A stretch of 54,416 nt of DNA, taken from positions 62,001 to 116,416 of the forward strand of contig CAUYUJ010000243.1 in NCBI GenBank assembly GCA_963575745.1. Direction: 5' to 3'. The position numbers were made by a program, and so were the translations under genes. Of this stretch, positions 217 to 35,620 are shown piece by piece; position 1 is the stretch's first letter; each line of letters starts with the position of its first letter. Under the pieces are notes generated by a model. That model worked only from the letters and a program-made list of their open reading frames with translations, searched no databases and was not told the origin of the DNA. The stretch comes from Prorocentrum cordatum. Lineage: Eukaryota.

Positions 217-392
217 CTGCAAAAGAGCAACAATGCTCCTCGTGCACCCTGCTACCTCCTCATTCCTCCCCTTTATTGCCCCCTCCCCTCCTGCACGGTT
301 TTCCCTCCCCACAGGCCTTGCGATGGTCTCGGCCACATGGCGTCGGCCGTGGCCAGGAAAGCTCGCGGTAGCTAAACGCCGCGGCCAGGCCC

Positions 393-683
393 GAGGAGAA
401 ACAAGAGGAGGAACAGGAGGAGGAGGAGGAGCAGGAGGAGGAGGAGGGAGGAGGAGGAGGAGGAGGGAGGAGGAGGAGGAGGAGGAGGAGGAGGAAGGAG
501 AAGGAGGAGGGGGAGGAGCAGGAGGAGCGAGAGGAGGAGGAGGAGGAGGAGGAGGAGGAGGAGGAGGAGGAAGGAGAAGGAGGAGGGGGAGGAGGAGGGG
601 TAGGTGGAGGAGGAGGAGGAGGAGGAGGAGCAGGAGGAGCAGGAGAAGCAGGAGGAGGAGGACGAGGAGGACGAGGAGGAGGA
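393..683. repeat. (GGA)n microsatellite
   Basis: Directly visible imperfect GGA array. Confidence 0.95.
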
Positions 684-1117
684 CGCTCCTCTTGGCGCTC
701 TCGTGGGAGCCCCTTGGGGCCCACGGCAGCGGGGAACCGACCGGGCGGCCGCCAGCCCGCCTGCATCTGGTCCGCCTGCGCCTGCCGGGCCCCCGCCCCT
801 CGAGGCCTGCCCAGGCGTCCTGCGACCGCTGCAAATGTGAGCAGGGACCGACCGTCCCGGCATTTCTATCGGCCTGACACGAAATATTCTTAGAACCCAG
901 AGATGTGCTAAGAACGCTGTCCTTAGAATATAAAGCCGACGTGTTAAAAGAAGGAAGTCCCAACCAGAAATGTTATAAAAATATTTCGTGGAAGCCACAG
1001 AAGGCTCTTATCAGTGTTTGGTGGGCCTATAGGCACGCCAGGAGGCTTCGCAACTGCTTGACAGATGCCCTCACCCCTGCGAAGCCAAAAAATCCCTCCG
1101 CCGCCGCCGCCTCCGGC

Positions 1118-1680
1118 TCCTGCCTCCTCCGCCTCCTCCTCCTCCTCCTCCTCCTCCTCCTCCTCCCACCCCGCTTGACGTTGCGCCAACTTGAATCCTC
1201 TGTTTGTAGCGTTCTCCTCCTCCTCCTCCTCCTCCTCCTCCTCCTCCTCCTCCTCCTCCTCTTCCCCCTGCCTCCTCATCTTCCCTCCCGCCGCCTGCTC
1301 CTCCATCCTCAACCGCCGGCTCCCGAAAGTTGGACTCCTCGTCCTCGCACCCCCTCGCTTCTGACAGGAGGAGGTATGGTAGGGGGAGGAGGAAGGGGAG
1401 GGGGAAGGGGAGGGGGAGGAGCCATCAGGGCTCCTCCCCCATCCCGCTCTCCCCCCCTACTCGGGGGGGCCTGTCGAGGCCAGCAGGGGCTACCTGGGGA
1501 GCCCCTCTGTGTGCAATCCGAAACCTTACCGAGAAGGAGGAGGAGGAGGAGGAGGAGGAGGAGGAGGAGGAGGAGGAGGAGGAGGGGGGGGGGTCCCTCA
1601 TCCCTGGAGGAGGAGGAGGAGGAGGAGGAGGAGGAGGAGGAGGAGGAGAAGGGGGGAGGGAGTAGGAGAAGGAAGAGGAG
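1118..1680. repeat. (CCT)n and (GGA)n microsatellite blocks
   Basis: CCT runs at ~1118-1310 and GGA runs at ~1533-1680. Confidence 0.9.
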
Positions 1681-2099
1681 TGGCAGCATCCCGGGAACAT
1701 TCTGATGACGCCATCGAGTCGCATCGAGGAACAGGAGGAGGCAAGCCGCCCCCGCGACGCGTTGAGGCCCCAGGCGCCCGCTTGGGCAAAGTTGAAGGTC
1801 TGCGCCGAGAGCCTCCGGCCCAACACCTCGCAACGGCCGGCCGCGGCCCTCTCCCGCTGCTCCGTGTGCCCTCGCCCTCGCCCTCCTCGTGGTCGTCGTC
1901 GTCCTCGTAGTCGTCGTCGTCGTCGTCCTCGTCCTCGTCCGCGTGGTCGTCCTCGTCCTCGTTCTCGTCCTCGTCCTGATCCTCGTCCTCGTCCTCGTCG
2001 TCGGCGGCGGCGGCGAAGGCGTCGGCGTCGGCGGCGGAATCATCGTCCTCCTCCTCCCTCCTCCTCCATCACCTCCTCCTGTCTTTCCTCGGGCACTGG

Positions 2100-4309
2100 T
2101 CATCTTCAATCTGCAGATACTTTAAACAATTGCATTGGCCGGCTTTCACACGATTCTTCCAGAATTTCTGGTTAAGCGGACGTATCACGACAACATGTTG
2201 AACAATCGGGCTGAAGGCACTGTTGAGTCGTCTGGGAGCGGTTGTCTTGGGACCTACTGGATACAGCAGGCTGGAGGCTACTCCCCCACGCTTCTGCAGG
2301 ATTGCGATGGATAGCAAGGCCACGGACTGGGATGGGGTTCGCCCGTACTCGATGCCGAACAAGGCCCTCTAAGACCACTGCAATATCTCGGGCCACCTTC
2401 TGCAACTTCGCGCTCGACAAATCCAACTGGGTAAGCGCTGGGCCAATCGACCCACTCACCTTAGGAAGTTCTTTGTGCATTACTCTGGACAGCATCTTCT
2501 GAGAAAGAGAGTTCACTTACGTCGACAAGGTCCCTCTCGCTTTCTGCATGCCATTGGCTCTTTCAGCTGCGAGACGACCTTAAGGTCTCGGAGGTGCTCG
2601 ACCAAGGTCTTGTTTTACTGGGATGGCTGACGACAATCGGCTTCTGCTGGATGCGACAAACTCGTCTTTCTTCACTGCCATAGACGTTGCCGTGCAAAAA
2701 GCCAGGCAACTTACAATTGCGATCCCGCTGCCATCTGCGGCTGTCCAGGCCGAGTCGCTACACCACAAATCGGCCGATCTCGAAACCTAAATGCCAACGC
2801 TCCCGTGGAAATGCTGGCTCTCCTCTGAGACTCACGACACCGAATCGTGCGATGCGAGGGCTTCATGACACAACGAGATCTTACGAATCGCCTCCGACAA
2901 ATTCACGGGGTCCAAAACGTATGCCGAATACTTACGCCGTCAACTTTCCATTGTCGTGCCAGTGCTGTCGGCCGTTATCGAACAATCGATCCATGTCTTT
3001 GTGCGAAACTCAAACGGGTGTCATATCATGCATGCTCTGCCTGCGATTCCGAGGGCTCGAACGTAGACGAGTTGTACAACTACGCTGGTCTTCGCCACCC
3101 TCTTCGGCCACGTCCTTACGTTGACCATGCCAAGCGAGTTCGATGTGGCAATGACCGTGGCTCTATCATCCTAGTTCAAAGAGCCGCCCAAGAGGAATGA
3201 CGAGGACGGAACCGACGAAGACTGGCACAAGTAGCACAGTGGTGGCGGCAAGGGCAGTTGAGACAGCAGCGGCAGCAACGAGGGCAGCGGCGACAAGCTC
3301 GCGGTGCCCCACAGGCGTCTCACCATCAACCACGCCAGGCACAAGGCCGATGTCAGCGGAGTGCTGTGCCTCAACTACGGGCAGCCCGACGCGGGGGCGG
3401 GCTTCCCGCTGACGTGCAAATCCGCAGGCGTCGCCTACAGCAAGGAGTCCCACGGGCTGAAGGAGGAAGCCGAGTCACAAAACGACGTCGACTACAAGAG
3501 CGGAGGGGGGCGCACCCGCACGTGGTGATGTCGGCGATCTTGCACGGAGCGCGCACGTCCTTCACGGAGCAGAGCGATGAGTTACAGGCTGTGCCCAGGG
3601 ACGAGGCGAACAAGTTCGACCAGCAGCACATCTTCAAGGCGGGCCTGGCACAAGTGGGTCGCAGCATTCCCTACTTTCGCTGAAGGCCGTTGAAGGCACA
3701 AGGGAGACGAGAAGCCGCAGGTGATCACGATCGGCAACACCGTGGCGGCCCAGCTCGAGAAGCTCATCATATTCGAGAAGAGCCAATTCATCAGCGGAGC
3801 GGCCCCGAAGGGGCCCGCTGGAGAGAATGATCGGAACGGAGGTCGAGGCGAAGGACAGAAGCTTAGGGAGAAATGCAATTCGGGCCTCGGTCTCGGGAGG
3901 GTTTTCTCTCAGGCAGCAGTCGGTTCAGGGAATCGGTGATGAGAGGAGTTCTTTCGGAGGGGTCCCACCAGACCTCCTTTGCGCCTGGGTTGACATATGC
4001 TGCAGCGCGCCTGGTAGGCCCCCCTCCCAGAGACCTCTCTAGTTGTTGCCCCTAGGCCGAAAGCAGATCTCAAAGGCAAAAGAAAGGTCGTGGAGTTTGT
4101 GGTCGGAACGGGGCTGGTGGTGTCGTGTGACGCCCCGTGCCTTTGGAGCCTGCCTCCACCTGGATGCGTGCCACGTGGGGGGGTGCAGGACGTCCAATGC
4201 CGCTTTGGGGATCGCGACAGCATGTAAGATGGCCACGGTGAATACGCAGCGATCGGGCTCAGAATTCCACACTTTCAGGCGAGTTTCCCCCGAAACTGAA
4301 TCCCAATCC
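2100..4309 (+). mobile_element. 5'-truncated, decayed LINE-B copy (end of ORF2 with C2H2 remnants, downstream ORF, 3' UTR, AATCCC tail)
   Basis: CEGFMTQRDLTNRLRQIHGVQNVCRILTP (from 2847) aligns with CGHGFQTKRDLMNHMRQIHQVHNLSATLTP of the 24-29 kb element. LQYLGP (~2380) resembles RYLGP. The downstream ORF is homologous and the copy ends in aatcccaatcc at 4299-4309. Left boundary approximate. Confidence 0.65.
3150..3860 (+). pseudogene. Disrupted 3' ORF (ORF3) of the LINE-B copy
   Basis: DKLAVPHRRLTINHARHKADVSGV...SAGVAYSKESHGLKEEAESQNDVDYKS...GAAPKGPAG aligns with IKLVLILGRLVLADSRARAEVPST...SA-GAGYNGQAEELKAEAEQGEAVDLQSRG...GPTPRGPLK at 24915-25623. Several stops and frameshifts; ends approximate. 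Confidence 0.6.
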
Positions 4310-12800: not shown

Positions 12801-13989
12801 AATGATGTGCGGTAGCGGCCGACCCAGGCGTGGGGAAGGGTGCGAGCTTTTCACTCTGAACACAAAACGTTGCAGTGATCAAAGCAGTACATGTCACGTT
12901 ATCATGCGATGGCGCCGCCAACACTCAGTCAGAGAGTAATGGCGACGCAGGAAAATAACACACGATGGAAACGTCGCTAATGATTGCATCCTTCTGACCA
13001 TTGAACCGAGCCTCGCATGATGTTCCGATCGAACTGTGCCAGAACACAATTCTTGGGTCGTCAACGCCGCGAATCACCGATACTGTTGCGTCTTGGCGGC
13101 CCTGCATCGTGCCCGGGCACCACCCCTGGAAATTCAGCGCCGCGAATAAACGTAACTGCCGCGCCCCGACAATCTGGCATCGTGCAAAAACACACATTCT
13201 GAGACGGTAACCATTGAAGTAACCATTGAAACAACAATAGACTCGAAAACGAATGCGCGGAGCGCTAAAACGAGATCCGCCGATTGAAAAAGAACCGCCT
13301 TCCATCCGTGAAACTGTTGCCAATTTGTATCGGCGGAGGTATTGCAAAGCCTTCAAAAACGACCGTGGGCGGCGCTTAGACGATAACCGCATTTTGAAAG
13401 CAGACCGCCCGCCATTCGTGTGCGTGGCGCTCAAGCGAAAACCACATTTTGAAGAGGAACCGCCCTCCATCCGTGATGCCCTTGCTCAGTTCAAGCCTCA
13501 GGATCGCAAATGGACAGAACATCTCAAGTGAAACGCCCGACCCACCCCTTCGACCAACCTCAGATAAAAGGGAAATTGGGACACACAAATAAATGCACAC
13601 AAATAAAACTATTCCCCATATTTTCCCATATTTTCTGGGTTTTCGTCCCCCCCCCAATTCCCATATTTTCCCATATTTTCCTGGGAACCGACGGTTAACT
13701 GCGTCTGTGTGTTTTTTCCTCTTCAGCCTCAGAGAGCGACAGGGAGAAATCAGTTCTAAGGAGAAGGAATGCGAGAGGACCTCCTCGCCCACTCCTTTGC
13801 GTCCGCCCCCGCCCTCCTCCTCCCCTTGAACGGGCGGTGAGGGCTGGGCATCCTCCCCTCCTCCCCTCCCCCTCCTCCTCCTCCCGCCTCCTCCTCCTCC
13901 TCCCCTCAGCGACGCAGCGACAATAGGTCCAGACGAGCAGAACACTAAAGCAAGCTAAAGTGGACACAGCTCAAATCCGACCAAGAAAA

Positions 13990-13996
13990 AGAGAGA

Positions 13997-14063
<67 letters not shown>
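13990..14063. repeat. (GA)n microsatellite
   Basis: Directly visible. Confidence 0.95.
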
Positions 14064-14066
<3 letters not shown>

Positions 14067-14119
14067 TGGAAAAGAGGAGAAAGGAAGGCAAAGGAGTGCA
14101 AATCTCCCTCCATGCCCCT

Positions 14120-14179
14120 CCCTGCCCTCGGAGCTGGTGACCAGCTCGCCGAACGTGGTGGCCACGTTGTAGGGCAGGG
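14120..14179. other. Y-shaped three-way-junction hairpin
   Basis: Stem ccctgccct (14120-14128) / agggcaggg (14171-14179) encloses hairpins gagctgg-tga-ccagctc (14131-14147) and aacgtgg-tgg-ccacgtt (14152-14168); all pairs are Watson-Crick. Confidence 0.8.
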
Positions 14180-14445
14180 GGGAGGAGGGGGGGCGGGACC
14201 CTTCTACCCCAGTTCGATTGCTCCTCCTGCTTCCACTATCCTCAAAGCCTCCTCATAATGATGTTAGGCCCCTTTTAAAATCAAACCCCAGCAACGCTGA
14301 CTGGACGAGCTGGCACCAAAAAGCGCCTAGGAGGACCTGGTCTACTCCTAAATTGTAGGGCGAGTACTGTTATAGACAATGAAAGGTAGACCCTTATATA
14401 AACCCCTTATTCTTACTCGCCCTACGCTGCCTAACTGGGCAGCCC

Positions 14446-14841
14446 TCAGTCCACGTCAGAGCTGCTGGAGACGCCATGGCCCCTCAACTTGCACTTGAGG
14501 TGGCGGACATATTCCTGGACCTTTGACAGGTTGGCTTTCAAAATCTTCACTTGGTCAATCTTCAACTTGCGCCTGGTGACCCTGGTGACCCTACCCTTGC
14601 CCTTGCTCTTGCTCTTCAAGAGGTGGGCCGGGGGCGGCGCACGCGGGAGCGGTGCTTTCCCGCTCCCGCCCGAGGCCTTCGGCCTCAAGTACGGCACAGG
14701 ACCATAGAAGCCATATTCACCAGGCTTGGTCCCGATCTGTCTCGGCGCAAGGCTGCTGCTGCTGCTGCTGGGCTTAGGCCTGGGCTTGGGCCTGGGCGAC
14801 ATGCGCTTGCTCTTCGGCATATTCTTGGCCACTGGCTCCAT
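14446..14841 (-). CDS. Small basic (K/R/P-rich) protein with a C-terminal amphipathic helix, 131 aa; candidate ORF3 of LINE-A
   Basis: Intact ATG (14841) to TGA frame MEPVAKNMPKSKR...KLKIDQVKILKANLSKVQEYVRHLKCKLRG, on the same strand as and ~550 nt downstream of ORF2. No family recognised. Confidence 0.5.
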   Translation of the reverse strand: MEPVAKNMPKSKRMSPRPKPRPKPSSSSSSLAPRQIGTKPGEYGFYGPVPYLRPKASGGSGKAPLPRAPPPAHLLKSKSKGKGRVTRVTRRKLKIDQVKILKANLSKVQEYVRHLKCKLRGHGVSSSSDVD

Positions 14842-15386
14842 TGCCCTCGCCCTCCAAGCCAAAGTCCCTAGGTTTGATAGAAAGGCTACTTATAGACAGT
14901 GTTATATGTCTGCGCTGTCACTGCTGGTGCTGCTGCGGGGCGGGGGGAGGGCCTCCTCCTCCACCACGCGCGCGCGCAACAAACAGCACACACACGCACA
15001 CAAACACACCCACGCACACAGCCTCCTCCTCCCCCAGCCGGCTGCCATAAGCAGCTCCGAGGTCGCGGAGGCATCCCTTCCCCATGAACCCACGCACGCA
15101 CGCAGGCATAGGGGCAACGCAAGAACAGCAGCAGCGCACGCAACAAGAGATAACCCCCCTTCCGCCCTCCCAAAGACGTCTGGTCCCCCATAGGGCCTGG
15201 CATGGCTGACAGTGCCGTTGCTGCTGACTGTGCTGTTACTGAGGCCCTCCAATGTCAGCCATCACCATGGGTCCCCAAGGGCATTCCCAGGCGACAGAGT
15301 CTAGAAGGATGCGGGGAGCAGCTTCGTCATAAAACCATTTCCTTGCGTGTGTAGCAGAGGAGGCAACACCAGAAAGCATACAACCC

Positions 15387-18300
15387 CTAGGTTGGGCCTA
15401 CATCTTCAAAATGAAGAGTGGTTGCTGGTACCTGTCCACGGCGGAGCTTGCGTAGCTCCGAAGATACTTTATCATCACACGGCTTCATGGGCTTTTTGCC
15501 CAACTTTGAGCCAGTTGCAAAGGCCCCGCAACGAACACAAAAGAGTATAAGCAAACGGGACCCTACTATCCAACCAACCTGCAATGCATGTTGCAGGGGC
15601 CTCGCAGTCCCAAGAGTGTTCCTGAGCGCTACAGGCTGTGCCCTGCAAGGTTTGGTGGATTTGGGCCCTACCGCCGCAAAGCAGCGGATACATCGAAAGC
15701 TTACTCCAGTCCAATGGGGCTGGTGATAATCCACAAAGGGCCTCGGTTTTCGAGGTGCCGATGCTTTGATTAAACTCCCATAGAGCTCCTCCCTGTGGGG
15801 CCAGAGGTCTATCCTGCGCCCTACTCCTATAAGAAGGTTGGTGTAGAGCTCTACGCTGGCGCCATGCTCTTCTATGATGTCAGGGTCAAGGTCATGGCTG
15901 GCTGCCGCCGAGCCTGCGTGCCAGTCCGATCCTGATCTGTAGTGGCTTCAGAGGTGCTCCTATGGGCTTTTACCTTTTGGAGCTCTGGCCAATGTTGGGG
16001 ATCCACTGTGCGAGCAATGGCCCGCCAGAAGCCAGCAAATTGGTTGGTGCCTGTTAGCACTCTGATGGGGTCTTGACCTTTGAAAAGTCCAGAGTAGTCG
16101 GCGATAATGGGAGCCGTCCGTGGGTAGTCAGAGAATGCGACTGCTAACCCTAGCCCACCGTGCTCTGCGTGCCCCGAGTTCTGGGGGTAGTAGCCAGGCA
16201 GCGGGGCCCGAATTGCTCGAAGGAGGACCCCTTCCTGGTTAAGCTGTACAGCTGCACAGCCTCCCCTAGCAACCCCAGGTAGAGTTGGGTGGAGTCCACT
16301 CCCATCTGTGAAGATCGGGAGGTCTCCTGCGAATTTGCCAGGTGGGCATATTCCCCTTTCGTTAAAATGAAGCACGTCCCAGTCTTCTATGGGACTCTCC
16401 AGTTCTTGCCTGGGTGCCCATAGCCTGCTGAAAAAAAAAAGGTCATCAGGCCCCTGGGCCAAGGCATTGGTTTGAAAGTCTTCTAGGTATTCGTCCCTAG
16501 CTTCTTGAAAGAAAGGGCACTCCCATATACGATGGTATGCCGTGTCCAATGTATGGCAAACTGCGCATAGCCCGTCTGTTTCAAATCCCCAAGCTTGAAG
16601 CTTGGATCCCGTGGTACAACTTCCACAATACATAGACCTAACCAACTGCACCTGCTTAAACGTGGGCTTCTTCGAAGCTCTCCTAAGTGCAGTTTTAAAT
16701 CCCTCCGTCCACAGCCCCCTTTCGACTATGGGGCTGGTTGGCGGTAACACCCTACCTACATGCTGCTGGATCAACTGTTCCTTTACATCTGCAACGAACT
16801 CCTTTGAGACCACTCTGGGAGGTGTCTCTGTTATGTTGAATTCTTCGCCAGTAGATGAGGCAAAGTGTGCTGGACTAAAAGTGGCCCACTGTCCTTTCCT
16901 AAGCCATAGCAGCATCTGTGAGATAGGGCCGTACACCTTTCCAAGCCATGAAGTGCACCTTGTGTGGGCCAATCGATCCTGAGCAATTAAGAAAGCATCC
17001 CGCAATTCAAATACTGTCAGTTGGTCAGCGTGCCGTTCTAGCTCAGGTCTTGGAGATGTGGCTCGCCACCATTCCTGGCAGTAGCGCTCTAGACAAGCTC
17101 CTGCAAGAGATAGCGGGTCCTGAAGATCCAGTGTGGCCCACCACAGATCACTCTGTCCTGACCTGAGGTGGAAGGCGGAAGCACCTGCCGAAAGAGATCG
17201 CAACCTAGATATTTCTGACGGCGTGAACCCAGAGGTTCCCGCCCCATAATGGATGGTGGACCTTACTCCCGTGAGGTAGAATCGGGACCGCAGGGCCTTG
17301 GATTTCTTGCCCCTGATCCCCTTGAGGCGCTTGGCCCTGGCTGTCAAGGCCAGCCACCTACGCCGACGGACTTTTCGGGCCCCCGTATACCTAGCAGTTT
17401 TACCTGCAGGAAAGTCGATACCTAAGTTCTCAACTCCCCAGCCTGCAGTACCTGCTAGAATCCCAAGAGTCTTCTTTGCTCTTTCCACCAGCTCTCCTGA
17501 GCTGCCCACAATGCTAATCTTCGGCATCGCCAACTTCAGCTTCAAGTCATGGAGTCGGCTGCGGATATGGAGGGCCAGCTCAATCAACTTCTCTAATACA
17601 ACATTGATGCTCATGCCAAAGCTCGAGAGCGTGAGATCATCAATATGCAAGCTAGTGCTCAAACCTTCGTCTAGCTGTTCTGTCATGACAGGGAGGAGGT
17701 AGGTCTTCGCCTCATATGTGGCTGGGGATGCCCCTGCCGTTATCCCCCTCCCTGGGAAGAGCTTGGTAGAATAGCATCCATCCATAAAGACTCTTCTTGC
17801 CCAGCGATACAAATGCAGAGAGAATACCATGACGTGCTGGGGATAAGAGAAAGCCAACCCATGCTCATATAGGAAATGGTGGTCCACCATCTCGTAGAAA
17901 CTCTTGAGGCCCCATAGGAGAGAGAGGTAGTGTCCTCCTTGGCCCGAGAGGGCCTCGCTCCTAGTAGATTGCCGCCGTGCCGTATCCTCTGGGGAACGGC
18001 CCTGGCTGGCACTAAACGGGGCACCAAGACCGTGCTCCCTTTCCCATTCTTTGCAGTATCGGCTTCCCAACTTGCCATGAACCCTAATGAAAGCATACAG
18101 ATGACCAATGCATCTTCTGCCTCCTCCCTTATGCTTCCTGGCAAGTAATAGCTGCAATTCATGCAAGGAGGAAGGTGCTACCCCTAGCAAATCCATTAAG
18201 ACGTAGATCTTCCCCAGCGTGATCAGGCCGTCGTCGGAGGCCATACCAATGCGCTTCGGGCGGTACCCGTCTGGCTGACAGGTCCTGGTTTTAAAACCTC

Positions 18301-19940
18301 GGGCAATCTTCCTGAGCTTAGCAGGTGGGACTTCTGCTGGGACCCAATATCGTGTCCGAAATTGGAGCCATTCGGGGAGCCTCTGGGGTTCTGGAGTAGA
18401 CTGCCACTTCTCACCCCAAGATTCAAGTTGTGCTTGGACGGGGTTGGGCAGAGAAGATGAGGGCCCGTGGTCTGTCAGGGTTACTTCTTCGTGTAATTCT
18501 TCGGTGCCCTTCAGATGCCTGTAAATCGGGGAACCTTCTCCTTCCGCAGCTTGCTCGCACCAGGCGTCCCAGCTTCCCTTGCTAGTCTCCCTATCTGCCC
18601 CTTCAAACTTCTGACATGCGTTCTGATACCCAGAAACAAGTCGCTGGAACTCTTCGATGTCGACAGCCTTGAGTCGCAATTATTTGGCCGACTCGCTGAG
18701 TGGGGTGTGAAAGATCTCCCCTTCCTTCCAGAACTTGCGAAATGGGCCTCCATGTTCGGGTAGGTCTTCTAACTGCTTCAGCAACTTATCGAGGACTCTA
18801 CCAATAGGAGTGCCTGCTGGGGCCTCCACCCATGTAACATAATGTGCCCCAATCTCTTCGAGGCGGTGTACGACCCACCCTAGAGCCCGCTCGGGGCTTA
18901 CTCTTCCATACGACTTGCCCATTAAGAGTGCAGAGAGTGGTACTTCTTTAAACTCTGGCGTCGAACCAATCAGAAACCCTTCTGGAGCTGTTTGGGTCGC
19001 TTCATAGACTTCAGAACGAAGCTTTTCATTCCAAGCCGCGTAAGATTCGTCTAGGAGATGAATGCCGTCATGGTACATGGCATCTTCAGGAGAAAAGGCT
19101 CATGTATCCTTCTTTGCCTGATTCCTCAGGGTCTAACTTCATGCCTGCCAAGAACTCTTCCAGCTTGTCTATGATCTCGTCATAGCTTGGAGGGGGCCCC
19201 GAGGGCCCAATTGCTTCTTCGACTGGGACTTTGTGATGTTTCTTGGCAATTCTGACCCTAATATGATGGGTGTCTTGCCTTAACTGGAGCAACGCTGCCT
19301 TGTGAGGTTTGCTCGGTAAATCCAAATCTACTTCTACCTTCTCAACTGCATGTGAAAGAAGACTGCTAATCAGGAAGTAGTCCAATATAGACGCATGCTC
19401 ACCTGAAACGTACGTGTGCATGCTAACATCCGATTGGAACCGCATGTCCAGCTTGTCGACCGCCAGGTAGTCTAAGCTTATCCCGAGTGGGATGTTCCAA
19501 TCTCCCCCTATAATGCTTGCTTTACCATGCGATAATACATGATCCCCTATCTTCCTGATCAATTCCAAATTGGCCTGGCCTACCCCGCCTCCCGATATGA
19601 GGTAGATGCTGTACAAGGAGATGACCCCGTAAGCGTGCGTGCGCATGTAGCACTGGGTGGCCCTACCTGCTATCTGGAACTGCCCTGGCCCTTCTTCGCT
19701 CCAAACATCATGGTGCCTTCTGACCAAGATCATCGTTCCTCCAGAAGGATTCTTGCGGGGCCCAGGGACCGCTGGGGTTGCGAACACCTTCCAGCCCTTT
19801 TTGCGTAGCGAACCCGCTACACTTAGGATTCTGCTTTCCAAAACTCTGCGTTCCTGGATGAAGATGACATCCGCCTCTATCCCGCTGATAAGAGGCTCCC
19901 CTGAATTCCAAGAATTGAGATTCAGAGTCACAAACCTTAG
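15387..19940 (-). pseudogene. LINE-A ORF2: APE endonuclease + reverse transcriptase + RNase H + C-terminal Cys/His region, disrupted
   Basis: APE motifs VTLNLN, FIQE, IIGGDWN, LDYFLIS, PH (~19940-19280). RT motifs LLWGLKSFYE, GITAG, LHIDDL (17636-17647), NLGID. CxxC-D-H-R-W-C knuckle. RNase H motifs IFTDGS, AEHGG, IADY, KVKAH (~16320-15950). Terminal CIRC/CVRC. Lesions: frameshift ~19080, in-frame TAA at 18680, frameshifting deletion ~15925. Confidence 0.93.
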
Positions 19941-20028
19941 AGGGACATCTTTCTTCTTCGCCCCTCTCTTCTTGGTCTCCTTCTTGTGCTTAATGGGGTA
20001 CTGGTGTGGAGGCCCTCCAGGGTCAGCG

Positions 20029-21372
20029 CTAGGAGCACGCTGGCTCCGCGTCCCCCTCCTTAGGTGCCCCTTCGGGTCCCGAACCTCTGGCGGTGGCGTC
20101 CATCCTGGTGGCCTCGGGTGGGCCCTTGCGGTAGCCCTGCTTATCTTCGGGGTGGGTACCTTGGGCTTTGAGCATCTTCCCGTAGCCCCTGACGTTCTTG
20201 AAGGCCTCCAAGGATTCTGCATCCTGGTCCCCCCCGATAGCCTTGAAGGACTCTGGTTCTTGAAGTTTGGATATACGCCCACTGAGGTCCAAATCAGAAG
20301 GTCTTTTATTAATGCCACCTTTACCACCTTTCTTCTTCTGACCTTTGCCCACGCTCTTAGCCAGGGGCTTGGGTATGAAGTCTTCGAGATCGCGATCGTA
20401 CCAGCCTGTCTGATCGGATGTGACTGCTTCCCCTTCCTCATCCACTGGCATCGCAAACCCTCCTTGAGGCGGGGTGGGACTTTCCTCTTCCCCTGCCTTA
20501 GCTGCTTGAAGCTATTCCTGCCAGCGTTGATATATATCATCCCTGACGTATTCTGGTAGACCGCCGACGACACGATTCCAGGCGCCCAACTGCTTATCTT
20601 TCTCTGAATCTTCCTGAGGGCCTCCGTGCCGGTCTGATCCGTCCCGAAGATCCGAGATTTCTTGTTGGACTTCAGCTTCGAGCTCCTGGAGGTAGGCTTT
20701 CTGGGCTTCCACGGCTTCCAGGACCTTATCGCAATTTTGGATGTCCCCTTGGATGCCTTCCAACTGGGATTCTTTTGCTTTGAGCTTCCGTTCGATACGA
20801 TGTATGATCTGAGACCGAGGGAGCTGGGAATCTTTGGACTGCTTGACCGATTCATACAAGGCCTCGATCGTGGCCACATGTTCTGGTCCAAAATCAGTGT
20901 TGGGAGACCTGGCCTGCTGCAAGAGCTCATGGACCACTTGGGTCCCCGTTTTCTTCGGCTTCCTGGGCCTTTGTCCTTCCCAACTCTCCCCATGCTCTCT
21001 GTGGTCTCCTGCCCCACCCTTTCCCGGCCTCGTCCCGTAGCCGCCGTGCTGCTGGTACTGGTCGAGCATGTGGCCTGACGGACCTGGTCCACCTGGTCCT
21101 CCTGGCCCTCCTCCTCCTTTAGAAAATTCCTTGCCTCCTTTAGCTCCTCCCTTAAAGGTTCCTTTCGGCCCACCTTCGGAGGTTCCTTTGCCAGTCCCCG
21201 AAAACTGTCCCCCGTTGGGTGGTGGGGGAATGGCTTGGGGATACCCATTTGGAATGCCCCATTGGCGAAGGTCAGCCTTGCAGTGATAGCAAGAATGGTA
21301 CCAAGGAGGATTCTTCTTATTCCCACATTGCCCGCATGTAACACCAGTGATCTGATACCCATGCTTATACAT
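20029..21372 (-). pseudogene. LINE-A ORF1: N-terminal C4 (RanBP2-like) zinc finger, Gly/Lys-rich linker, coiled coil; one premature TAG
   Basis: CGQCGNKKNPPWYHSCYHC; GGKG repeats; heptad-rich IERKLKAKESQLEGIQGDIQ...LQELEAEVQQEISDL. ORFs 20512-21372 and 20029-20451 share one frame, separated by TAG at 20512-20514. Confidence 0.8.
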
Positions 21373-21533
21373 TGCTCTACTGCCAAGGAAGGGCTGAGAG
21401 CGGCCGATCGCAATCGGCAGGGCGGGTTAACGACAGGGTTGTGTGGGAAAAGAACGCCTGCTGCAGGCGCGCACGCCTCGGGCCAACCCCTCGGCAGCAG
21501 ACAAGCACGAAGCCGCAGGGCGACGGTTTCGTA

Positions 21534-21555
21534 CTTGAGCCAAAATGGCTACGGA
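21534..21555 (-). other. Full-length dinoflagellate spliced leader (DinoSL) copy
   Basis: Reverse complement is TCCGTAGCCATTTTGGCTCAAG, a 22/22 match to DCCGTAGCCATTTTGGCTCAAG, 161 nt upstream of the ORF1 ATG. Confidence 0.98.
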
Positions 21556-21914
21556 GCCCTCCTCCCCTCCTCCTCCCCTCCTCCTCCCTCCTCCTCCCCT
21601 TGAACGGGGGAGGGCATCGGGCGGCCCGGCGGTCTGTCCCCGAAGACCAGCACCGTCCAGCCCGCCATCGCCGCCTCTGGTATGAAGCACCCCTCGGGGG
21701 GCGCCGGGGGGCAGGCCATCGCGCTGTGCTGGACGGGGTGGACACACATTTTGGTCTCGAGACACGCCCTGAGAGTGGATCGATGCTCGGGCGCTGTGCC
21801 TCGGCTTCGGGTCTCTCCAGGGGTTCCGCTTCAGGATCCGAGGCCATCCAACGGCGGCGCCGGATGAGGCTCTAGCTCTGCGGGAGCAGAGGCCTCCCAG
21901 ATCCTAAATGGGGT

Positions 21915-22085
21915 CTGGATGATGGGGTCGAGGGAACACGCCGCATCGCCGATGCATCGGTGACGCATCGCCGATGCATCGGCGACGTTTGTAATGCATC
22001 GAAGACGTCAGCGTGGAGAAGATCAGGCCCAACATCGAGTTGCATACCCGATGCATCGGCGATGCGGCGCGATCCTCCGATCCCA
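21915..22085. repeat. Palindrome-rich interspersed repeat (CCGATGCATCGG units)
   Basis: Three ccgatgcatcgg palindromes; 22048-22084 is an inverted homolog of ~36640-36675. Confidence 0.65.
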
Positions 22086-22639
22086 TCTATTCGGACACCG
22101 CCTGGGAGGCCTAGACTGCGTCGCCTGCCCCCGCAAAGAGGTTTTCTGATATAGTGTGTCCCCCCGCAGCTGGGTGCCGCAGGATATTGTCTGCCCGCCT
22201 CCCATTCCGCGCACCGCCTTGTACTCTGAAACCCCACGCTTCTGAGGAGCCCCTGTCACACTCCCAGGCATGTCTTACGATGTGTTCGTTTCAACGCAAG
22301 GCCCCAGACATCCCGACAGCTTCACGGGGAGACGGGGGAACTTTCTCGTCCGGGATCCATAACGCAGGTCTCAACGCCAAGGCTGGAGACACCTCAATTG
22401 CGCCACCAAGGTGGAACGGGCGGTCGCGGTCGAGGGACTGTGAGAAGCCGCGATGCTTCAATGAAAACGGGCAGGCGGGAAAGACGGGTGGAAATGAGGA
22501 GCAGGAACGTTAGCAGCGAGATTGGGAAATGGGGGGGAAAAGAAAAAGGCATCAAGGTATGAACAGAAAGGGAGTACGGGAAGGGACTGAAATCACTGCA
22601 GCCACTTCCCAGGCGTTGCTCCCCTTCGCACCGCCCGTC

Positions 22640-22800
22640 CTCCCCCTCCCTCCTCCTCCTCCTCCTCCTCCTCCTCCTCCTCCTCCTCCTCCTCCTCCTC
22701 CTCCTCCTCCTCCTCCCTCCTCCTCCTCCTCCTCCTCCTCCTCCTCCTCCTCCCCTCCTCCTCCCCCTCCCCCTCCCCCTCCCCCTCCTCATCCATCCCA
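22640..22800. repeat. (CCT)n microsatellite
   Basis: Directly visible. Confidence 0.95.
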
Positions 22801-25375
22801 CCCCTCGTCATCCTCCTTCATCCTGATTTCCCCTGCCCCCCCCATCCTTTTCGGCATCCTCGCCCCTCCATGATTACACATTACGAATACTACGCCACTC
22901 TCTCCCCTGACTCCGTGCGCCAGATATTCGGCCCTATCCGCGTGCTGCTGTTTGCGCAACACATGTCGCATATTGTGTTGTTATGGACAGGAGGTGTTGC
23001 AATCCCATTGATTATGTTTTTTTTCCGGATCGGCACTGTGCTCCCGCCGTTCAGAATGGTGCTCTCGCCCCAACGCAGAGCTGTGTGCTTCCTGGATCCG
23101 AACCATTCACTCTTGTTATTTCCCATGCTTGCCTCCCCCTGCTCCTCCGGTTTTTCCCGCTCTTGATCATCCCCCTTCTCATCCGCCACCTCCTCCTCCT
23201 CCTCCTTCTCCTCCCTTTCCTCCTCCTCTTCTTCCTATACACGCAATTATCCTCGATGTTCCCAATCGCGCATGACAGAATTGGGTATGTTTGTTGGAAT
23301 TCCAGGTCGGTTCTAACACGCTTTCGCGGGTAGGGAAAACAACAACAAGTTGGGACGGATGACAGGGATAGGATGTCCGACGAAGCGCGAACGCACCTAC
23401 TTTGCCCCTCTCCCTCTCTTCCGCAAACTCTTGCTGCTCCTCCCCTTTCTCCTGCTCGTCCGCCTTCCGCCATCCGTCCTCCTCCCCATCCTCCCCCCAC
23501 TGATGGGGAGGAGAGGGAGGACGGGGACGAGCGGGGAAAAAGGAGGGGGAAGACTTCCGCTCCTCCCTCCTCCTCCTCTTCCTCCGTCCCCCTCCTCCCT
23601 CCCTCCTCCTGCCTCCTGCCTCCTCCCTTCTCCTCCTCCTCCGTCCTCGACCCTCTTACCTCCTGCCCCCCCTCCCTCCCCCCCTCCCTCTTTCCCCCTC
23701 CCCGTGGGGGGTGCCCGCGGGCGCCTCGTATGGGCGCCCCGCGGGGTGGCCCGCGCCGGGGCACGCGCGCCCGCGGCGCGCGGGTGCCCGCCGCTGCTCG
23801 CGCGGGCGGGCGGCCGCGGCGTTGCAACCGCGTCGCGCAGCGCCGTCCCTGGTCGTCACGAGCGGCGTCGGCGTCCAGAGGCGAGGAGTTGTTCCTCCTC
23901 CTCCCTCTTCCTTCCCCTCAGTATATCCAATCCTTCCAAATCCTTGTTTCGCCTTTTTCCTCCTCCTCCTCCTCCTCCCCGCCCTCCTCCTCCGTTTCCT
24001 CCTGCGTCCTCCTCCTTTCCGTTTCGCGTCGTCCGGGCTAGGGCATCGCATTTCCTGATCCTGGGCGTCGTGCCTCCTGATCCTCCGTCTTCCTTGTTTT
24101 CCGTTCCCTCGTCCTCCCTCTCCTCCTCCTCCCTTCTCCTCCTGTGTAATCCTGCGGCCCAGCATCCGAAGGCTTCGCTCTGCTGCTCGGAAGTGCAGGG
24201 CAGGGCGGAGCGATCGGACGGCGGACGAGGAGGGAAGCAGGGAGGGTGGAGGAGGCTCATCGAAGGGGAGGGAGACGGGAGAAGGAGGCGGAGGAGCAGG
24301 AGGAGCAGCAGGATATGGTGAGGAGGGTGAGGAGGTCAGGAGGACGGTGGGTAGGGGGAAGGGCAGGAGGAGGAGGATTGGGATTGGGATTGGGCCCGTG
24401 GGAGTTCAACTGCTGCAACTAGACGCCTGACAACACCGCCTACCTTCACAGTTAAGGGAACTCCGGGGGGCGAATCGCGATTCGCCAAACCGTCTGATGC
24501 GGCCCGGGGCACACGACGGACGCCGCTCGCCCCCACGAGCACCCCCAGGACGGCACGCAACCTACGGAGGGCCCGCTCTTGGGGACCAATGAGAGTGCTA
24601 CCGACCACCCGTCTTACCCTTGCCCGTGCCCTTGGCCCTCGAAGGCCCCCCCCTCTCTTTGGATAGTCGGGGTATTGGACACTCCAGAACCATGAGCTGA
24701 GGGCAAAGGGGGGGTCGAGGGTTCAAAACTTCAGAAGACACTAAACCCTTGCGGATTAAGTCAGCCAGCCTTTCACTCGCCCGCAGCGGATGTTGGTGAC
24801 TGACACCTCGGGATTCCGACACGGGCCCTCTGTTCACGGGCCAACTACTTGTCTGTAAGGCGCTGCTACCGCTACTGCTGCTACCTCCTTTTCCTATGCC
24901 TAAGCTGCGCCCCTCTACTTGAACTCCGCCAGCAGCTTCGACGCGTCCCGCTTCAAAGGGCCCCTCGGCGTGGGCCCGATGCGCCTCTCCGCCTTCACCG
25001 TCTCTAGCGTGGCAGTCACAATCTGCATCCAGTGCTGCGTGTCGAAGGCGACGATCAACCTGCCCTTCGGCTTGCTCTCCGTCTTGTTCTTCCACTGCCA
25101 ATGTGGAACCAGCTCCCCCACTAGTACAGCCGACGCCTTGCAGTGGTCCTCTTTGTAGAACTCGTGAGCGGGGGCCATCCACGGCTCTTGCTTCACTCCT
25201 TCTTTGTTGTGTTGCATGGCCGCCCAGTGCGTCGTCGTCGCGAAGATGGTCACGGAGGGAGGGCCCCTGCTCTGGAGGTCGACGGCTTCTCCTTGTTCTG
25301 CCTCGGCCTTGAGCTCCTCGGCCTGGCCGTTGTAGCCCGCCCCGTGCGCTCTCGTTCGTCGCCGCGAATTCTGCG

Positions 25376-32806: not shown

Positions 32807-32906
32807 NNNNNNNNNNNNNNNNNNNNNNNNNNNNNNNNNNNNNNNNNNNNNNNNNNNNNNNNNNNNNNNNNNNNNNNNNNNNNNNNNNNNNNNNNNNNNN
32901 NNNNNN
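32807..32906. other. Assembly gap (100 N)
   Basis: Run of n. Confidence 1.
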
Positions 32907-32944: not shown

Positions 32945-33478
32945 ACTAGTATTCTTGATTTTTGTATGTTTATTGTTAATATTTGTATAAATGTTAGTGA
33001 TACTTTATTGTTCCTATTATTAGTAGCAGTATTATTAGTTGTATTCGTCGTCCTCGTCTTCTTATGTTCGTTAGTATTCGCATGTTTAGTATTAGTATTA
33101 TTATTATTATTATTATTATTATTCGTATTCAGATCAGTCTGGTTATTCGTATTATTAGTCTTACTATTCATAGTATTATTAGTGTGGTGATTCGCCTGTC
33201 TTCTCTTTTTCTTATAATTACTAGTACTATTGTTATTATCATTAGACTTACAACTATTAGTATTAGTCCTCCTCCTCCTCCTCCCCCGCCTCCGTTCCGC
33301 CTCCCCATCCCCCTCCTCCTCCCCCTCCCCCTCCCCCTCCTCCTCCTCCTCCTCCTCTCCTCCTCCCCTCCCCTCCCCCTCCCCCTCCCCCTCCCCCTCC
33401 CCCTCCCCCTCCCCTCCCCCTCCTCCTCCTCCTCCATCCTCCTCCTCCTCCTCCTCCTCCTCCTCCTCCTCCTCCTCC
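32945..33478. repeat. Degenerate (TAT)n tract followed by a (CCT)n/(CCCCCT)n tract
   Basis: TAT-rich at 32945-33266; CCT-rich at 33267-33478. Confidence 0.9.
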
Positions 33479-33505
33479 TGGCTCAAGCAACCGTATTGGC
33501 TCCAG
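33479..33505 (+). other. Tandem spliced-leader relics
   Basis: TGGCTCAAG (33479-33487) equals the last 9 nt of DinoSL; CCGTATTGGCTCCAG (33491-33505) matches CCATTTTGGCTCAAG at 12/15. Confidence 0.8.
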
Positions 33506-35185: not shown

Positions 35186-35620
35186 TCCTCCTCCTCCTCC
35201 TCCTCCTCCCTCCTCCTCCCCCTCCTCCTCCTCCTCCTCCTCCTCCTCCTCCTCCTCCTCCTCCTCCTCCTCCTCCTCCTCCTCCTCCTCCCCTCCTCCC
35301 TCCTCCTCCTCCTCCCTCCTCCTCCTCCTCCTCCTCCTCCTCCCTCCATTTCCTCCTCCATCTCCTCCTCCTCCTCCTCCTCCTCCTCCTCCTCCTCCTC
35401 CTCCTCCTCCTCCTCCTCCTCCTCCTCCTCCTCCCCTCCCCCTCTCCTCCCCCTCCCGCTCCCCCTCCCTCTCCTTCTCCTCGCCCACCTCCTCCTCCTC
35501 CTCCTCCTCCTTCCTCCTCCTCCTCCTCTTCATCTCCTCCTCCTCCCCGTCCCTCTCCCCCTCCCCCTCCTCCTCCTCCTCCTCCTCCTCCTCCTCCTTC
35601 TCCCTCTCCTCCTCCTCCTA
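35186..35620. repeat. (CCT)n microsatellite
   Basis: Directly visible. Confidence 0.95.

Follow-up and report, generated by a model that had tools for sequence, protein, structure and literature searches.

How does a long interspersed nuclear element (LINE) obtain a defined, capped 5' end in a host that caps its mRNAs by trans-splicing, given that elsewhere internal promoters or ribozymes do this job? And which reverse transcriptase (RT) makes the thousands of retrogenes that are tagged with the dinoflagellate spliced leader (DinoSL)? Both questions are raised by a locus in Prorocentrum cordatum, and both are testable with existing data for sequenced dinoflagellates. The DNA analyzed here, referred to as the window, is a stretch of 54,416 nucleotides (nt) from GenBank assembly GCA_963575745.1 (contig CAUYUJ010000243.1, positions 62,001 to 116,416 of the forward strand); coordinates are positions within it. 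The window carries, on its minus strand, a LINE whose 5' end is a complete spliced leader (SL). We consider it about 70% probable that this is a dead LINE copy that arose from a trans-spliced RNA, was copied by target-primed reverse transcription up to the first base of the SL, and was inserted at a GGA/TCC site.

A LINE integrates when its mRNA serves as the template for target-primed reverse transcription. DinoSL is trans-spliced onto nuclear mRNAs, and SLs encoded in DNA mark retroposed transcripts (PMC5585692, PMC12014239, PMC7245778). The RT responsible for this mRNA recycling has been called unknown, or Ty1/copia elements have been favored (PMC5585692, PMC6050394).

A complete spliced leader at the start of the element

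Positions 21534 to 21555 of the plus strand are the reverse complement of TCCGTAGCCATTTTGGCTCAAG, which places a complete 22-nt DinoSL with T as its first base on the minus strand (21555 to 21534), an exact match to the consensus DCCGUAGCCAUUUUGGCUCAAG (PMC5585692; PMC7245778). With up to 3 mismatches allowed, the 21-nt core of the SL matches the window only once, and no match arose in 100 dinucleotide-preserving shuffles. Next to the SL, in the minus-strand direction, comes a leader of 161 nt that by reading has no ATG (21533 to 21373) and then, at 21372, the ATG of an open reading frame (ORF) of 286 amino acids (aa), designated ORF1. The first ATG past the SL is thus that of ORF1, which is what scanning of a capped mRNA from the SL onward would require. 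On its opposite side the SL is flanked by positions 21556 to 21602, which are (CCT)n on the plus strand, which is (GGA)n in the orientation of the element (Tandem Repeats Finder [TRF] rows 21558 to 21600). Perfect runs of such arrays with at least 4 units make up 4.9% of the window. A preliminary description of the locus had given the coordinates, the exact 22-nt DinoSL, the 161-nt distance to ORF1, and the CCT flank, and all were correct by sequence check. Every checkable detail of that description stood; the location of the element on the minus strand was the one thing that it left unstated.

LINEs joined to SL sequence have been described before. SLACS, CZAR, and CRE of trypanosomatids and NeSL-1 of nematodes insert into the SL exon of SL RNA genes with a restriction-like endonuclease (PMC4640811). 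If the element in the window were a site-specific LINE of this kind, the SL would simply be host gene sequence, and both the physical linkage of SL and LINE and the existence of LINE clades that target SL exons (PMC4640811) speak for such an origin. However, the SL is complete and is directly followed by TA, the first bases of the 161-nt leader, so there is no SL-intron donor. All SL-gene introns in Fugacium (18 SL genes) begin with GU or GC (PMC6616646). Because TA rather than GU or GC follows it, the SL is not that of an SL RNA gene. Furthermore, no second part of an SL and no SL intron was found past the element, the one SL in the window at up to 3 mismatches being the one described here. 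The flanks are a microsatellite and a 23-nt duplication rather than SL-gene sequence, and the endonuclease is of the apurinic/apyrimidinic endonuclease (APE) type and N-terminal, in contrast to the restriction-like enzymes of the CRE and NeSL clades (PMC4640811). Insertion into an SL RNA gene is at odds with the sequence and extremely improbable as the source of the SL.

Coding capacity of the element

ORF1 (20029 to 21372, minus strand) encodes a zinc-ribbon-like N-terminus with a CxxC...CxxC motif, a Gly/Lys-rich stretch, and a putative coiled coil, the last with a weak Pfam match of the coiled-coil type (NPV_P10, E 3.6e-3). The N-terminal portion of 286 aa (21372 to 20512) ends at an in-frame TAG (20514 to 20512), beyond which the same frame is open to 20032. 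The GC content by codon position is 0.64/0.46/0.55 before the TAG and 0.64/0.49/0.60 after it. Because the frame stays open and the coding-type GC pattern persists, ORF1 is read as extending from 21372 to 20032 with a premature stop.

The first part of ORF2 (19089 to 20006, minus strand) encodes an endonuclease of the APE type, with the endonuclease/exonuclease/phosphatase (EEP) fold, as suggested by homology to the distantly related protein P0002, by fold matches, and by the motifs LNLNSW (19925), IFIQE (19865), GGDWN (19508), LDYFL (19385), and SKPH (19313). Residues 41 to 265 of P0002 aligned to window positions 19928 to 19251 in a tblastn search (E 7e-10), and the same residues are recognized in Pfam as Exo_endo_phos (31.2 bits versus a cutoff of 24.5 bits). 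A direct Pfam scan of the endonuclease piece from the window gave no match. The fold model of this piece is of low confidence (pLDDT 50), and the listed fold matches are nearly all EEP-fold nucleases at TM scores of about 0.5 to 0.6: AP endonucleases, exonucleases, and phosphodiesterases, including the LINE-1 and TRAS1 endonucleases.

A frameshift in a run of T residues (19093 to 19096, minus strand), evident from the reading frames and from contig comparison, splits ORF2. Related contigs from two public DNA runs, designated X1 and X3, have one base fewer in this run (at 19093 and 19095), and for this reason other copies of the family probably read through it. The second part of ORF2 (15872 to 19099, minus strand) includes the RT motif HIDD (17647 to 17636), a CCHC-type zinc finger (about 16567), an RNase H-like FTDGSG motif (16312), and a stop codon at 15872 to 15874. 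It also contains an in-frame TAA (18682 to 18680).

The RT was identified from several lines of evidence. The Pfam match to RVT_1 is weak (E 7.8e-5; 22.9 bits, under the cutoff of 29.6 bits). Residues 238 to 538 of the protein P0001, its RVT_1 region, align to window positions 18124 to 17210 (E 1e-13). When a three-protein profile was compared with PDB, all five matched sequences were human LINE-1 ORF2p (E 2e-3 to 7e-3), one of these entries being titled "RNA-directed DNA polymerase." The zinc finger has a weak match to zf-RVT (E 1.2e-3), and the domain order of endonuclease, RT, zinc finger, and RNase H is common to the window ORF2 and P0002. A protein search with ORF2 found only two distant proteins, at 23 to 24% identity. 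The lines that bear on the RT (RVT_1, P0001, PDB, and the HIDD motif) are each weak alone, but they agree with one another. The best PDB matches, to human L1 ORF2p, and the weak zf-RVT match are pointers to an L1-like element.

Thus, the unit is a nearly full-length, L1-like LINE of the APE type, with ORF1 followed by an ORF2 that comprises APE endonuclease, RT, zinc finger, and RNase H domains. This result bears out the earlier designation of the unit as a LINE. Comparison of the window with itself by BLAST revealed no long terminal repeat, no other long repeat, and no second copy of the element. This LINE copy is dead, with two in-frame stops and one frameshift.

Beyond the ORF2 stop, a region of about 2 kb (13908 to 15871, minus strand) lies within the repeat-bounded unit described below. 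It contains a TG-rich simple repeat (about 15020 to 14965), a basic ORF of 131 aa (14841 to 14446), and a (CT)n run (14064 to 13990). The 131-aa ORF matched nothing in Pfam and no known family; possibly the element has a third ORF here, or the ORF was transduced from the host. The region as a whole may be the 3' untranslated region of the family or a 3' transduction.

The frame of ORF2 is also free of stops across the whole of ORF1, for more than 450 codons, in the window (21548 to 19086, minus strand), as it is in the metagenome contig L171 described below (290 to 3709, plus strand). Overlapping coding by this long frame was rejected because codon-position GC fits the ORF1 frame alone, and the openness of the frame is probably compositional.

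Boundaries of the insertion

An exact 23-nt direct repeat, CCCGTTCAAGGGGAGGAGGAGGG, has exactly two matches in the window, both on the minus strand, and had none in 100 shuffles. The upstream copy is at 21586 to 21608, with looser similarity to about 21615 to 21580, and the downstream copy is at 13812 to 13834, with looser similarity over 13844 to 13806. A gapped alignment of 21615 to 21580 with 13844 to 13806 scored 51, compared with 40 or less for every other tile, and the similarity covers about 36 to 39 nt. The insert bounded by the repeats is 7.75 kb long and has (GGA)n runs at both inner ends. The insert begins with 30 nt of (GGA)n, continues with the SL, the LINE, and the 3' region of about 2 kb, and closes with a 57-nt (GGA)n run (13849 to 13907, minus strand; TRF rows 13851 to 13907). 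This last run may have been a tail at the 3' end, or it may belong to the target microsatellite.

The 23-nt repeat is read as a probable target-site duplication around the 7.75-kb insert. Because the repeat brackets the unit and the SL lies 30 nt inside it, the SL is at the 5' end of the inserted cDNA. Of all the features of the window, the bracketing repeat argues most strongly for a template RNA with the SL at its start.

Outside the upstream copy, at 21921 to 21987, is a palindromic tandem repeat with units of 11/22 nt (GCATCGCCGAT). Summed contig depths over this repeat are in the hundreds to thousands in the public DNA runs X1 to X3, and it appears to be a high-copy repeat family adjoining the insertion site.

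Proposed origin of the genomic spliced leader

The arrangement of these features suggests a route by which the copy may have arisen. First, trans-splicing would have joined the 22-nt DinoSL to the element RNA, with an AG immediately ahead of the 161-nt leader of ORF1 as the acceptor. The machinery of the element would then have reverse-transcribed this RNA by target-primed reverse transcription up to the first base of the SL, and insertion of the cDNA at a site rich in (GGA/TCC)n would have produced a target-site duplication of about 23 to 39 nt. Because copying would have reached the first base of the SL, the SL encoded in the DNA would be a scar of the true 5' end of the RNA. The genomic SL ends in AG right before the leader. 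Thus, a daughter transcribed from upstream could be spliced again at this point, which would regenerate the same 5' end. Splicing at an AG within the SL would instead yield stacked relics, as in many retrogenes.

The preliminary description had proposed that the RNA of the element was trans-spliced and copied to its first base. For this copy the proposal is well supported by the exact SL, the bracketing repeat, the TA after the SL, and two findings described below, the same junction in a contig of run X3 and the SL-headed, LINE-like unit L171.

Other LINEs face the same problem of acquiring a defined, translatable 5' end. Some, such as R2, are processed by ribozymes (hepatitis delta virus-like ribozymes), and cotranscription with subsequent processing is functionally comparable to excision from host transcripts. 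The L1Tc/ingi elements of trypanosomatids, whose hosts also trans-splice, have the internal promoter Pr77. Pr77 yields unspliced transcripts (PMC1874656, PMC8190864), whereas the 5' end of the element in the window would come from trans-splicing of the host SL. An Rfam scan of positions 13000 to 23000 at E values up to 1, which covers described families only, found no ribozyme in the leader, all nine matches being far under their gathering scores.

Other copies of the family

Logan contigs of four public DNA runs (X1 to X4), all of them DNA only, were aligned to the window at 80% likeness or more. Short contigs with 94 to 98% identity covered the element in 30 of 30 bins in X1 and in 26 of 30 bins in both X2 and X3, whereas the X4 contigs matched only simple repeats (2 of 30 bins). 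As many as four distinct X1 contigs covered one place (19070), and consequently either several copies of the family or several strains are present in that run. Some of these matches may also come from related strains, as orthologs of the locus.

In one X3 contig the alignment starts at 21525, so that it covers the last 9 bases of the leader and enters the SL. The 30 letters that precede this point in the contig, too diverged to be aligned by the program, agree with window positions 21494 to 21524 in 22 of 31 columns by eye, including one block of 14 of 15. On sequence grounds, this contig is a diverged copy of the family that has the same junction of SL and leader. Among the matches listed, no contig from X1 to X4 bridged the SL. 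At the other end of the element, related contigs in X1 and X3 reach at least 14845 to 14871. This sharing of the 3' region, at least as far as 14845, makes it probable that the long 3' part belongs to the family.

Searches at the protein level did not find further copies. None of 100 pattern matches for ORF1 in metagenome contigs and none of 41 pattern matches for an ORF2 profile in viral contigs was confirmed. A protein search with the open frame across the SL and leader, aimed at partial ORFs of other copies, gave 24 candidates, none of them significant.

Two other explanations do not involve trans-splicing of the element RNA. LINE RTs are known to switch templates. An RT copying an SL-less LINE RNA might have jumped to another, SL-bearing RNA, as in U6/L1 chimeras, and the 30-nt filler between the duplication and the SL could be a trace of such a jump. 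However, a jump to an mRNA would have added the 3' part of that mRNA, and a jump to the SL RNA would have added its intron. Here the 22-nt exon alone joins the leader exactly, and the X3 contig has the same junction. A template switch is very improbable as the source of the SL. The second explanation is an artifact, either sequence derived from cDNA or a chimeric assembly join. The window includes a gap of 100 Ns, so it is a scaffold, but the gap (32807 to 32906) is 11 kb away. Moreover, the SL has a genomic microsatellite on one side and the element on the other, a direct repeat encloses the unit, and contigs from the DNA runs of three other studies cover the bin at 21307 to 21547. An artifact of either kind is, in our estimate, highly improbable.

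Spliced leader-headed units elsewhere

A scan of metagenome contigs for T-initial SLs not followed by G found at least 121 sites in at least 120 loci, and the metagenome counts given from here on hold among the matches listed. Most of the contigs are too short to judge, 13 metagenome sites having at least 2.5 kb downstream. A scan of prokaryote genomes and contigs of metagenome-assembled genomes (MAGs) found 7 SL sites, 4 of them with at least 2.5 kb downstream.

The marine metagenome contig L171 (3709 nt, GC content 0.51) has an exact 22-nt SL at 76 to 97. A leader of 497 nt separates the SL from the ATG, at 595, of an ORF of 506 aa, and this ATG is the first past the SL. In build it is like ORF1 of the window, its zinc-ribbon-like N-terminus being followed by a Gly/Lys-rich stretch and a coiled coil; sequence similarity between the two is not significant (E 0.14). 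Residues 756 to 890 of the downstream frame match the P0002 endonuclease at 28% identity (E 1e-8) and the window endonuclease at 22% identity (E 3e-5). The contig ends ahead of any RT. A decayed SL-like 15-mer with 3 mismatches is located 37 nt behind the SL, compared with a chance expectation of 0.15 per contig. As judged from its sequence, L171 is an independent SL-headed, LINE-like unit from another organism. Hidden Markov models for the endonuclease and RT, run over six-frame ORFs of the metagenome and MAG loci, recovered only L171, which is itself in the model, and tblastn searches with the ORFs of L171 and L147 found no further relatives.

Three further sites with sufficient downstream sequence (L147, L165, and L243) have domains of retroelement type, and none of them could be identified as a LINE. 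L147 has weak RNase H and Exo_endo_phos matches 5.6 kb behind the SL. L165 (824 to 4262, minus strand) has an exact SL and, 2.5 kb downstream, an ORF for a cytosine-5 DNA methyltransferase (DNMT; PF00145, E 2.7e-36), with the contig ending before any endonuclease or RT; it may be an element of the SymbioLINE-Dnmt type (PMC5890265) with an SL head. L243 is on a 209-kb contig of a Rhodospirillaceae MAG and has an exact SL, the sole SL in that 3.7-Mb record, followed by an ORF of 489 aa and one of 1333 aa with a weak RVT_1 match (E 1.1e-5). The 1333-aa ORF has an RNase H-like motif of the TDAS type and is not similar to P0002. L243 is probably a eukaryotic (dinoflagellate) contig in a bacterial bin that carries an SL-headed retroelement other than a LINE.

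A zinc ribbon is present in the first ORF behind the SL at 4 of the 75 sites that have at least 600 nt downstream (L124, L160, L178, and L197), none of which is demonstrated to be a LINE ORF1. At L124, L160, and L178 the SLs have stacked relics, and the first ORFs have a RanBP2-like zinc ribbon (W-x-C-x2-C...C-x2-C) and basic and coiled-coil stretches. These three ORFs resemble the window ORF1 in build, with no detected sequence similarity. Relic-like sequence stands right behind the SL at about 17 of the 121 sites by eye.

Simple-repeat junctions and a neighboring retrocopy

The sequence ahead of the SL was compared across 106 distinct metagenome sites with at least 20 nt upstream; 15 of the 121 were dropped because they were near a contig end or were duplicates. 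A simple repeat filled the 20 nt upstream of the SL at 16 of the 106 sites, compared with 24 of 2,120 controls from the same contigs (Fisher P value, 5e-12), and was about 13 times more common directly before the SL than in the controls. The repeats ahead of the SL (L120 to L246) included TA, CAT, AC, GGGT, TC, GA, TACA, and others. By eye, simple repeats also precede the SL at three of the seven MAG sites.

Within the window, the LINE lies between (TCC)n arrays on the plus strand at 13851 to 13907 and 21558 to 21600, and a retrocopy at 33.48 kb (plus strand) lies between (TCC)n arrays at 33267 to 33479 and 35186 to 35619. The retrocopy begins at 33480 with the last 8 bases of the SL (GGCTCAAG), followed by a decayed relic (CCGTATTGGCTCCAG). 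No poly(A) and no target-site duplication beyond the microsatellite were found for it, and its ORF of 382 aa has no Pfam match. The array-flanked LINE and retrocopy fit integration at simple repeats by one kind of machinery, and a shared enzyme is not proven. It had been suggested in the preliminary description that the same RT drives the recycling of host mRNAs. The evidence for this is circumstantial: both the LINE and the retrocopy abut (TCC/GGA)n, and simple repeats directly before SLs are enriched in public contigs as described above.

Is the spliced leader a regular part of the life cycle?

The copy in the window might have been a one-off. A LINE residing in a host transcription unit could have been included in a read-through RNA that was trans-spliced at a cryptic AG and then retroposed as a processed copy, in which case the normal 5' end of the family would be longer and have its own promoter, and the SL would have no place in the life cycle. 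This is what a single copy in the window would suggest, and a read-through template would also give the approximately 2 kb and the extra ORF that stand between the ORF2 stop and the 3' repeat. Furthermore, SL-headed, retroelement-like units occur elsewhere, with a weak RVT_1 match in L243 and a DNMT domain in L165, and such copies show that retroposition is open to any trans-spliced RNA. However, the diverged X3 copy joins the same leader to the SL, the ATG of ORF1 is the first past the SL, the unrelated LINE-like L171 has the same layout, and X1 and X3 contigs share the 3' region down to at least 14845. These findings make a one-off processed copy distinctly unlikely.

Several other observations weigh against trans-splicing as the source of the 5' end of this copy, or as a general property of such elements. 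The SL is not flush with the direct repeat, with 30 nt of (GGA)n intervening, and the approximately 2 kb beyond ORF2, including the extra ORF, could point to a template other than the standard RNA of the family, such as a longer read-through transcript or a hybrid one. The window itself offers a single copy in which the 5' junction can be seen, and the other copy known to have this junction is one short contig whose right-hand extent is not visible. Among the 17 SL sites with enough downstream sequence (13 metagenome and 4 MAG sites), only 1, L171, is clearly LINE-like. A pattern search of the window found no relic SL stacked behind the SL of the element, and for this reason repeated cycles through an SL-bearing master copy are not demonstrated. 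Finally, a 2019 preprint reported that genes with DinoSL relicts and RT genes share no enriched functions and called the two processes independent (10.1101/783902). In the other direction, Song et al. (2017) found the Gene Ontology term "RNA-dependent DNA replication" enriched among DinoSL-tagged genes (PMC5585692), which counts in favor of the proposed origin.

When these points are weighed, it is somewhat more probable than the opposite that trans-splicing is the regular means by which the family makes and caps its 5' end and that the AG at the end of the SL permits renewed splicing at the same point. A further proposition, that the element lacks a promoter and relies on read-through transcription from the host, is tentative and rather doubtful. 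Pfam searches with 18 large ORFs of the window, which sought host genes and their direction, gave nothing usable. The most far-reaching possibility is that such LINEs are obligately SL dependent. They would be promoterless passengers that are released and capped by the SL, the SL would be copied to every full-length daughter, and its AG, perhaps with its T-rich core, would prime the next round; the same machinery, preferring simple repeats, would make the DinoSL retrogenes. The T-rich core of SL relicts has been proposed as a promoter-like motif (Song et al. 2017, PMC5585692). We regard this combined scenario as possible but unlikely.

Relationship to known systems

A close likeness is to the DinoSL-tagged retrogenes (Slamovits and Keeling 2008, as described in citing papers; PMC5585692), in which a DinoSL encoded in DNA likewise stands 5' of an intron-free unit on the strand of the ORF, as the scar of a retroposed mRNA. 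The unit in the window differs in that the mRNA is that of an autonomous LINE, which is itself a candidate source of RT, and in that the SL is complete and without stacked relics.

Boroni et al. (2018) reported 32 gene bodies of Schistosoma mansoni with the SL inside them, 6 of which were transposable or retrotransposable elements, and suggested that these are "trans-spliced retro-transcribed elements" (PMC5832876). The idea of an SL-bearing retrotransposon was thus already in print for another phylum. In that case the SL is a different one, the authors raised the idea as a possibility and noted assembly chimeras, and the accessible portion of the paper gives no element anatomy, junction, or target-site duplication (PMC5832876).

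Dinoflagellate LINEs, both SymbioLINE-Dnmt and those without DNMT, have been described by de Mendoza et al. (2018; PMC5890265) and, like the element in the window, have ORF1 and an ORF2 with endonuclease and RT. The ORF1 in the window has no DNMT. In that paper, "spliced leader" and "DinoSL" do not occur, and "trans-splic" occurs once, in a general remark (PMC5890265). No dinoflagellate LINE with an SL as its 5' end was found in full-text literature searches; supplementary lists of DinoSL-tagged genes and of RT genes in dinoflagellate genome papers may include overlapping cases.

Spliced leaders in viral contigs

A DinoSL scan of IMG/VR found AT-rich contigs of giant-virus bins and no LINE, and tblastn searches there with the LINE proteins gave no matches. 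In these contigs (L001 to L119, mostly from giant-virus MAG bins), an exact 21-nt DinoSL occurs at 134 to 136 distinct sites, with a median GC content of 0.20. The SLs are nearly always preceded by A and by recurrent AT-rich motifs, and in 111 cases out of 134 the SL is followed, after 0 to 192 nt (median, 52), by the ATG of an ORF with a length of 100 aa or more. The ORF contents include DUF4116 repeats, RING and CCCH fingers, NADAR, and ABC_tran. These sequences give the impression that viral genes have the host leader encoded at their 5' ends. A search of literature listings found no paper on DinoSL heading giant-virus genes. One further IMG/VR contig, L067 (5319 nt), ends in an SL and encodes an RNA-dependent RNA polymerase of viral type (RdRP_1, E 4.5e-7). 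The contig may represent an RNA-virus-like gene with a host leader, either as a transcript or as a copy made by retroposition.

Implications

The exact leader at the start of this LINE indicates that the template from which its DNA was made was a full-length RNA bearing the leader. If the SL was a one-off at this locus, the unit is an ordinary processed copy. If its use is regular, full-length copies would carry the SL, or the SL plus CCATTTTGGCTCAAG relics, exactly at the T of TACGAAACC, and the host SL would do the work of defining and capping the 5' end and would be inherited by each copy. The wider claims, of a regular strategy, an element without a promoter, and an engine of mRNA recycling, are plausible and unproven.

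LINE copies that reach the first base of the SL would directly attest that SL-capped RNAs undergo target-primed reverse transcription of the LINE type, the more so if their junctions have simple repeats as those of retrogenes do. LINEs of this kind are a concrete candidate for the enzyme behind the recycling of dinoflagellate genes, and if they prove to be obligately dependent on the SL, the long-sought engine of dinoflagellate mRNA recycling would be named.

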